From: a virus | Lineage: Duplodnaviria; Heunggongvirae; Uroviricota; Caudoviricetes | Direction: 5' to 3' (one strand) | DNA length: 21,675 bases | IMG/VR virus record: IMGVR_UViG_2728369593_000011 | The notes under the pieces: model-generated | Database searches by the model: none | Told to the model about the DNA's origin: nothing | What the model saw: only the letters and a program-made list of their open reading frames with translations | Shown: positions 1-690 of the stretch, piece after piece | Layout of the letters: the number at the start of each line of letters is the position of its first letter | Numbering within the stretch: position 1 is the stretch's first letter | Program-made: the position numbers and the translations under genes

Positions 1-289
1 TGGTGGTGGTGTCTTCCAGCGCGAGGAGCAGCGGATGAGCCCCACATGCCCTTACAGTGGCGGTAAATCCGGCTTCGGCAATGGCTTGCGGGGACACAGA
101 CGGGTTACGTATCAGGCGGTACGCACCTTCAACCTGAGCAGTGGACTGGGATGATTTCACAATAGAAAGACCTGCATGCTGAGCGAGAGAAGAGGCCAGT
201 GACACAAGGCGTCGTGTACGACGCGGATCACCGAGACGGGCATGTCCAAACTGCTCGTTAGCCCATGAATAACAATCAGAAAGTACCAT
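1..289 (-). CDS. IS4-family transposase, N-terminal ~96 codons (truncated by window edge)
   Basis: ATG at 289-287; translation MVLSDCYSWANEQFGHARLGDPRRTRRLVSLASSLAQHAGLSIVKSSQSTAQVEGAYRLIRNPSVSPQAIAEAGF...LLLALEDTTT resembles Tn5 Tnp (LGDPRRTARLV...EGAYRFIRNPNVSAEAIRKAG...LLAIEDTTS). Not in the ORF track because it runs off the window. Confidence 0.7.
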   Translation of the reverse strand, partial: MVLSDCYSWANEQFGHARLGDPRRTRRLVSLASSLAQHAGLSIVKSSQSTAQVEGAYRLIRNPSVSPQAIAEAGFTATVRACGAHPLLLALEDTTT

Positions 290-416
290 AACAGACCCGA
301 AGAAAATGAAATATAAGAGAAGATCAACGGGTGAGGAAAAAGTTCAAAAAATCGCTGCCGGGGAGGAAGGAAACTACCGGATGGAAAGAGTCCCCCTAAA
401 GCAGACTGACAGACAT

Positions 417-442
417 CACAAATCCCCGGGTGGGGATTTGTG
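417..442. repeat. Perfect hairpin (11-bp stem, 4-nt loop) inside the IS terminus; core of a 49-bp imperfect palindrome 406-454
   Basis: cacaaatcccc (417-427) / gggt / ggggatttgtg (432-442) are exact reverse complements. Flanking arms ctgacagacat (406-416) and tataagagacag (443-454) pair imperfectly. Confidence 0.85.
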
Positions 443-454
443 TATAAGAGACAG

Positions 455-690
455 GTCTCCGGAGAGGCCAGAGTGCCTTTGAGGGAATGGGAATGCCATA
501 GCGACATCGCCACAAGCAGGGATGCCGTTTCCAGATATCGCTGGTTAATGTGCACGACATCATGCTTCGTTGTCTCCTGTTGTTCTGCGTCTGAAACAAA
601 CTTTATATAATCAAACCGCTGCAGCGCAGACAATTCGGAAAGCGTGACGGACACACCGTTATATTCAAATTGTTCTGTTTTCAGAAACAT
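455..690 (-). pseudogene. G: Lambda G-like tail assembly chaperone, 5' part only, truncated by the IS insertion
   Basis: N-terminus MFLKTEQFEYNGVSVTLSELSALQRF...LLVAMSLWH resembles lambda G (MFLKTESFEHNGVTVTLSELSALQRIEH...FLVAMSLWH). The track ORF 157..690 reads through the IS end into unrelated sequence. Lies directly downstream of V as in lambda. Confidence 0.7.

Follow-up and report, generated by a model that had tools for sequence, protein, structure and literature searches.

The question raised by this locus is whether a lambda-like prophage of E. coli, interrupted by an insertion sequence inside its tail assembly chaperone gene G, has lost the tail genes that normally follow G, or whether the available DNA simply ends before them. 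By the window we mean the whole stretch of 21,675 nucleotides that was analysed; an exact-protein look-up with its 177-aa ORF identified it as the entire contig AKYH01000002.1 of the draft assembly GCA_001605745.1. The explanation that we favour, with a probability of about 0.85, is a simple ISEc13 insertion in gene G of this strain, the tail genes resuming beyond the IS.

The insertion sequence occupies positions 1-454 on the minus strand and consists of the right (OE-like) 454 bp of ISEc13, truncated by the contig end. In the comparison with ISEc13 copies annotated in RefSeq, identity reached 99.8% over 1-454 and the alignments stopped exactly at 454; the matching copies carry the RefSeq/PGAP label 'IS4-like element ISEc13 family transposase'. 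A single substitution in the 454 bp separates the window from these copies and changes E to G in the transposase. The full length of ISEc13 is 1550 bp (reference copy L002, 4905-6454), and up to ~30 copies are found per carrier genome, with 29 matching places in E2348/69. The reference copy ends in CTGTCTCTTGATCAGATCT at one terminus and, as in the window, in CTGTCTCTTATACACAAAT at the other. This latter 19-bp terminal repeat lies at 436-454 (minus strand), just as the earlier note had read it, and agrees at 17/19 positions with the Tn5 outside end and at 17/19 with the Tn5 mosaic end. In Tn5, the outside end (OE) is CTGACTCTTATACACAAGT and the mosaic end (ME) is CTGTCTCTTATACACATCT (PMC3347997). 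ISEc13 has 19-bp terminal inverted repeats starting with CTGTCTCTT that resemble the Tn5 OE/IE, and the other end CTGTCTCTTGATCAGATCT was seen both in L002 and in a second viral contig, L013, which is described below. Positions 417-442 form a perfect inverted repeat (11-nt arms and a 4-nt loop, CACAAATCCCC GGGT GGGGATTTGTG) that overlaps the inner part of the terminal repeat, and no promoter-like or terminator-like sites were scored in window 1-900.

Positions 2-289 on the minus strand (ATG at 289-287) hold the start of the ISEc13 transposase gene, 96 codons for the DNA-binding N-terminal domain, which run in the same direction as G. This 96-residue fragment matched Pfam Tnp_DNA_bind (PF14706) with E = 1e-20 and the Tn5 transposase structures PDB 1MUH/3ECP with E = 7e-22. 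The full-length ISEc13 transposase aligns end to end with Tn5 Tnp (E = 6e-84), and the full-length reference protein contains DDE_Tnp_1 plus a sub-threshold Dimer_Tnp_Tn5 match (24.1 bits vs the cutoff of 26.7). It is a Tn5 Tnp homologue of the DDE type and has Tnp_DNA_bind at its N-terminus; the catalytic domain lies outside the window. Judged by these sequence matches, window 1-454 is part of ISEc13, a known IS4-family IS50-like element. The earlier note had proposed, from the letters alone, that an IS50-like IS4-family element with a Tn5-like transposase N-terminus cuts G, and had named a lack of similarity to IS4-family transposases as grounds for giving this up; the proposal was confirmed, the similarity is clear, and the element now has a name.

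Compared with the named element, the window has the same OE-like end, transposase start and 165-bp leader, but only its first 454 bp. ISEc13 also shares the layout of IS50/Tn5: tnp begins close to the OE-like end and has its stop inside the IE-like end, the latter (CTGTCTCTTGATCAGATCT) being what we take to be the IS50 inside end sequence. Homology of the transposase extends along the full length of the protein, and the window end agrees with the Tn5 OE at 17/19 positions. At the nucleotide level it is nevertheless a different IS, with a site preference of its own, CCYCT-N8-AGRGG. The target duplication of Tn5 is 9 bp, whereas this insertion and most ISEc13 copies show 8 bp, and ISEc13 is thus a relative of IS50 and not IS50 itself.

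On the other side of the junction at 454/455, positions 455-690 (minus strand) hold the 5' part of the lambdoid gene G (nt 1-236), which is 100% identical to intact G and belongs to PF06894. Window 455-1500 matched uninterrupted lambdoid E. coli prophages of many strains at 100% identity, and the match started exactly at 455. Intact G was seen in L001, and the annotated order in E2863 is V - gpG - T - tape measure - M - L. The 236 nt retained amount to 78 codons plus 2 nt, and codon 79 still specifies Thr; residues 1-79 are accordingly identical to the intact 140-residue allele WP_000479045.1 and the sequence is divergent afterwards. In the Pfam comparison, residues 1-74 aligned to profile positions 1-74 of 126 (E = 1.4e-21), so that only the N-terminal part of this lambda gpG family is present, while the remainder in L013 covers profile positions 82-123. 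The C-terminal 61 residues of G are absent from the window fragment. The slip site GGGAAAG, at nt 367 of intact G, is likewise absent from the 236 nt of the window and present in L013; the IS lies between the G start and this slippery heptamer near the 3' end of G, from which the G-T fusion arises. The synteny V - G - T - H is preserved, with V at 704-1456 directly upstream and T and H in the intact relatives and in L013. As in lambda with its G / G-T -1 frameshift, the window G belongs to PF06894 and lies directly downstream of the major tail gene V; unlike lambda G, it is split after codon 79, leaving the N-terminal part without the slip site. The earlier statement that the G homolog is lambda-like for about 78 codons and that an IS terminus begins at 454/455 proved exact when compared with intact G and with ISEc13, and no G/T-like sequence is continued in the frame of G across 455.

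A 177-aa ORF spans the junction (157-690, minus strand) and joins G residues 1-79 to 98 residues from IS DNA. It was rejected as a real gene, as its last 98 residues correspond to non-coding IS-end DNA and out-of-frame tnp; this chimeric ORF is a by-product of the insertion. Its first 104 residues also occur in WP_249543594.1, from a 12,132-bp contig of another draft assembly. Because an independent draft assembly has the same chimeric ORF, the ISEc13-G junction is not a misassembly.

Searches for the junction of the IS end with G gave no match in the GTDB species-representative genomes or in IMG/VR, and neither this junction nor its counterpart at the other IS end was found in 5,426 complete E. 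coli genomes. Matches that reach window 467/468 were considered as the same insertion and rejected, since they are other loci with similar targets. In the protein collection, an exact copy of a 60-aa ORF corresponding to G residues 81-140 (P0001) is present on 99 contigs; either the insertion is common to many draft assemblies, or other disruptions of G give the same ORF call. Mosaic boundaries were also noted in this part of the prophage, at window 611 (inside G) and at ~2064. The region 455-2064 (G, V, U and the start of Z) tracks the E2863 lineage (100% over 455-1500, 93.8% overall), and the relatives that match best overall to the right of 611 (AMSHJX01 etc., ~96%) have another G allele with 46% protein identity.

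The absence of further tail genes has to be read together with the position of the contig ends. Position 1 of the window is the contig end and lies 454 bp inside the multicopy ISEc13. The right contig end is formed by the start of IS100 (IS21 family) at ~20894-21675, comprising its first ~780 bp with the start of istA, at 99% identity; the contig is therefore bounded on either side by an IS, with ISEc13 on the left and IS100 on the right. Contigs that stop in repeats are a normal outcome of short-read assembly, and most IMG/VR contigs with this ISEc13 end stop within about 60-120 bp of it. An assembler unable to bridge a multicopy IS would leave only one side of the insertion in the window. 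Because the contig stops inside such an IS, nothing about the genome follows from the window lacking T, H, M, L, K, I and J; the tail module only seems to be lost, an artefact of a draft contig that breaks off in repeated DNA. The practical consequence for scanning genomes is that a window ending inside an IS tells nothing of the DNA beyond. The IS100 copy itself sits in the nin region and adjoins an antirepressor (KilAC/Rha) gene. The IS100 copy of the relative Z1323HEC0423 was considered and found uninformative, being at a different site (in bet).

The other side of the insertion was sought with a predicted sequence. The expected junction was built from intact G (...CATCTCT GTCTCCGG) and the ISEc13 IE-like end CTGTCTCTTGATCAG, assuming an 8-bp duplication; this assumption rests on seven full ISEc13 copies in complete genomes, which show 8 bp and not 9 bp. 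Under a simple insertion the junction should read CATCTCTGTCTCCGG|CTGTCTCTTGATCAG, with T and H beyond. The predicted 33-mer had exactly one occurrence in IMG/VR, in IMGVR_UViG_2728369593_000023 (L013), and this second junction had no match in the GTDB representatives or the JGI metagenomes. L013 starts with 356 bp of the ISEc13 left end (1 mismatch), followed by CCGGAGAC, the reverse complement of window 455-462, and then by G nt 237-423 including GGGAAAG. Its downstream ORFs were assigned by Pfam to T, the tape measure (870 aa), M, L, K (JAB + NlpC/P60), I, J and Lom, and it also holds a stretch matching an annotated tail-fibre gene of complete genomes. The earlier observation that no tail genes follow G therefore holds for the window itself and probably fails beyond it, as T-H-M-L-K-I-J follow the complementary junction in L013. 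The check that the earlier note had proposed, to see whether G resumes past the other IS end, comes out in favour of a simple insertion rather than a deletion.

The 236 nt of G in the window and the 187 nt in L013 together give intact G (423/423 nt). In the uninterrupted prophage of strain ML35 both halves abut and overlap by exactly 8 bp (2303667-2303674), and because of this exact overlap simple transposition with an 8-bp duplication is indicated. The direct target-site duplication GTCTCCGG is found at window 455-462, with its second copy at L013 357-364 beside the IE-like end; the two copies stand on two contigs whose common genome origin is circumstantial. The duplication had been expected to be 9 bp long, and this expectation has to be corrected to 8 bp. 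The J gene of L013 has two private single-base insertions 18 bp apart (7706 and 7724), which give ORFs of 521 aa and 642 aa. These private J fragments are recorded on a single NCBI contig (87,387 bp), without a protein accession, and the chimeric ORF of the window is recorded likewise; private single-base insertions are a pattern common to the window and L013. The circumstantial case that both contigs come from the same genome is a good one, and the complementary junctions, the orientation, the G allele and the private insertions are consistent with it.

The weight of the simple insertion depends on how well three other accounts of the same window explain these observations. An IS-mediated deletion or inversion, in which recombination with another ISEc13 copy or an adjacent deletion removed or moved the remainder of G and the tail module, is compatible with the window taken alone. 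Such an event could draw on the up to ~30 copies held by ISEc13 carriers; two of the 12 full ISEc13 copies lack a target duplication, which suggests rearrangement, and IS100 interrupts this contig as well, in the nin region. Against this, 10 of the 12 copies examined are simple insertions, and a public contig with features matching those of this assembly has the exact complementary junction, followed by a full tail module; we therefore consider a deletion or inversion unlikely. It would be less probable still, and rather improbable on the whole, that the window and L013 stem from unrelated strains hit independently at one hot spot, in which case L013 would be uninformative on the tail genes of this strain. 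The strong site preference of ISEc13 speaks for independent hits, as does the G site itself, which is a near-perfect palindrome (TCTCCGGAGA). The orientation and the base-exact position are however identical, the same G allele stands on both sides and is rebuilt at 423/423 nt, and the site is not often used, as neither junction was present in the 5,426 complete genomes.

A chimeric join of an IS end to G during assembly, with the real G intact, has the least to recommend it and is in our view highly improbable. Many private single-base indels resembling sequencing errors do make the quality of this assembly doubtful; yet the join coincides with the final base of the IS terminal repeat, the site fits the ISEc13 target preference, a mirror junction with a matching 8-bp duplication exists, and the second assembly has the same chimeric ORF.

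With the simple insertion as the preferred explanation, the course of events can be proposed as follows. An ISEc13 copy would have transposed into codon 79 of G in a lambda-like E. coli prophage by cut-and-paste transposition of the Tn5/IS50 type, duplicating 8 bp (GTCTCCGG), and beyond the IS the gene G would resume, followed by T, H, M, L, K, I and J. Lambda requires both gpG and the -1 frameshift fusion gpG-T as chaperones of the tape-measure protein when its tail is assembled, and its T is not translated from a start of its own. In the present prophage, the start of G would be split from the slip site by the 1.55 kb IS, so that neither gpG nor gpG-T would be expected to be made from it; tail assembly would then fail unless a co-resident lambdoid prophage supplied G and G-T in trans. 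We infer that gpG and gpG-T function is lost and that the prophage should be tail-defective though its tail genes are present, because the C-terminal 61 residues of G and the slip site are cut off from the G start. The earlier note had reasoned that infectious particles could be made only if the tail genes continue past the IS; their resumption is insufficient, as G and G-T would still be lost.

ISEc13, its mechanism and its consequence here are already known, the case being that of a named IS in a well-known gene of an ordinary lambdoid prophage. Both the disruption of prophage genes by IS elements and contig breaks at IS copies are routine. The value of the result is mainly one of annotation, in that the G/G-T defect is explained by a simple IS insertion. 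Compared with the IS-disrupted defective lambdoid prophages of pathogenic E. coli, this one likewise has IS insertions (ISEc13 in G and IS100 in nin) along with other lesions; nothing about it is unusual, and several of its small frameshifts may be sequencing errors.

The choice of target by ISEc13 was also considered, and it shows a marked preference. Among 23 independent right flanks, AGGG/AGRGG was found exactly 8 bp outside the OE-like end in 13 and within 7-9 bp in 17 (flank set: window 436-475 plus L002, L003, L006-L011 and L015-L035). The known left flanks show CCYCT, which gives the target palindrome CCYCT-N8-AGRGG. The target duplications of the 12 full copies were 8 bp in eight, 7 or 9 bp in two and none in two. 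The G site, TCTCT|GTCTCCGG|AGAGG (CTCT-N8-AGAG), fits this preference. We would put forward, as a tentative and rather doubtful suggestion, that ISEc13 may be strongly site-selective, unlike Tn5, inserting at the centre of GC-rich palindromes with 8-bp duplications, and that the palindrome in G may be a recurrent hot spot whose use disables tail assembly. Three ISEc13 sites adjoin ibs type-I toxin genes, and many of the target palindromes, those beside the ibs genes among them, resemble terminators or hairpins. In L020 (IMGVR_UViG_2711768074_000009), ISEc13 is located at ~119 in a lambdoid U gene, with the flank GCACTGGC|AGGGATGATTACCACGATGG; because this copy sits in U, a lambdoid tail gene has been struck by ISEc13 in at least one other genome. 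The titles and abstracts of the papers retrieved on ISEc13 do not address target choice or mechanism. Should it be new, the preference for CCYCT-N8-AGRGG could be useful for predicting IS hot spots.

Several further lesions were found in the rest of the prophage. The major capsid gene E (3240-4293, minus strand) has one extra base at ~3677, a +1 frameshift that leaves fragments of ~200 and 143 aa. The head module, which had been taken to be intact, is thus broken at E as sequenced, possibly by a sequencing error; the extra base is absent from all 1,335 complete-genome records with that segment. The tail terminator gene U (1426-1851, minus strand) carries an 8-bp deletion at ~1500-1510 (GTTATGGA in relatives). 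This deletion, near 1505, alters the last ~18 codons and makes U overlap V, and none of the 1,649 complete-genome records with that segment has it; apart from this deletion, window 455-1954 is identical to strain ML35. The private lesions of E and U were also sought in IMG/VR and none were found there. Private single-base indels occur in addition in 12800-16400 and at ~19994; they are mostly insertions outside homopolymers, in sequence otherwise identical to that of relatives. The genes frameshifted in comparison with close relatives are those for lysozyme, holin (twice), a SASA-family esterase (three times), a hypothetical protein (16096-16852) and DUF1364. Taken together, the frameshifts in E, U and the lysis and accessory genes look more like consensus error than decay. 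The prophage also carries two moron-like cargo genes. One is a small ORF with a TonB C-terminal domain at 10914-11252 (minus strand), with cos/Nu1 on one side and the lysis genes on the other; the second, at 18185-19147 on the opposite (plus) strand and downstream of the Q gene region, encodes an LpxR lipid A deacylase.
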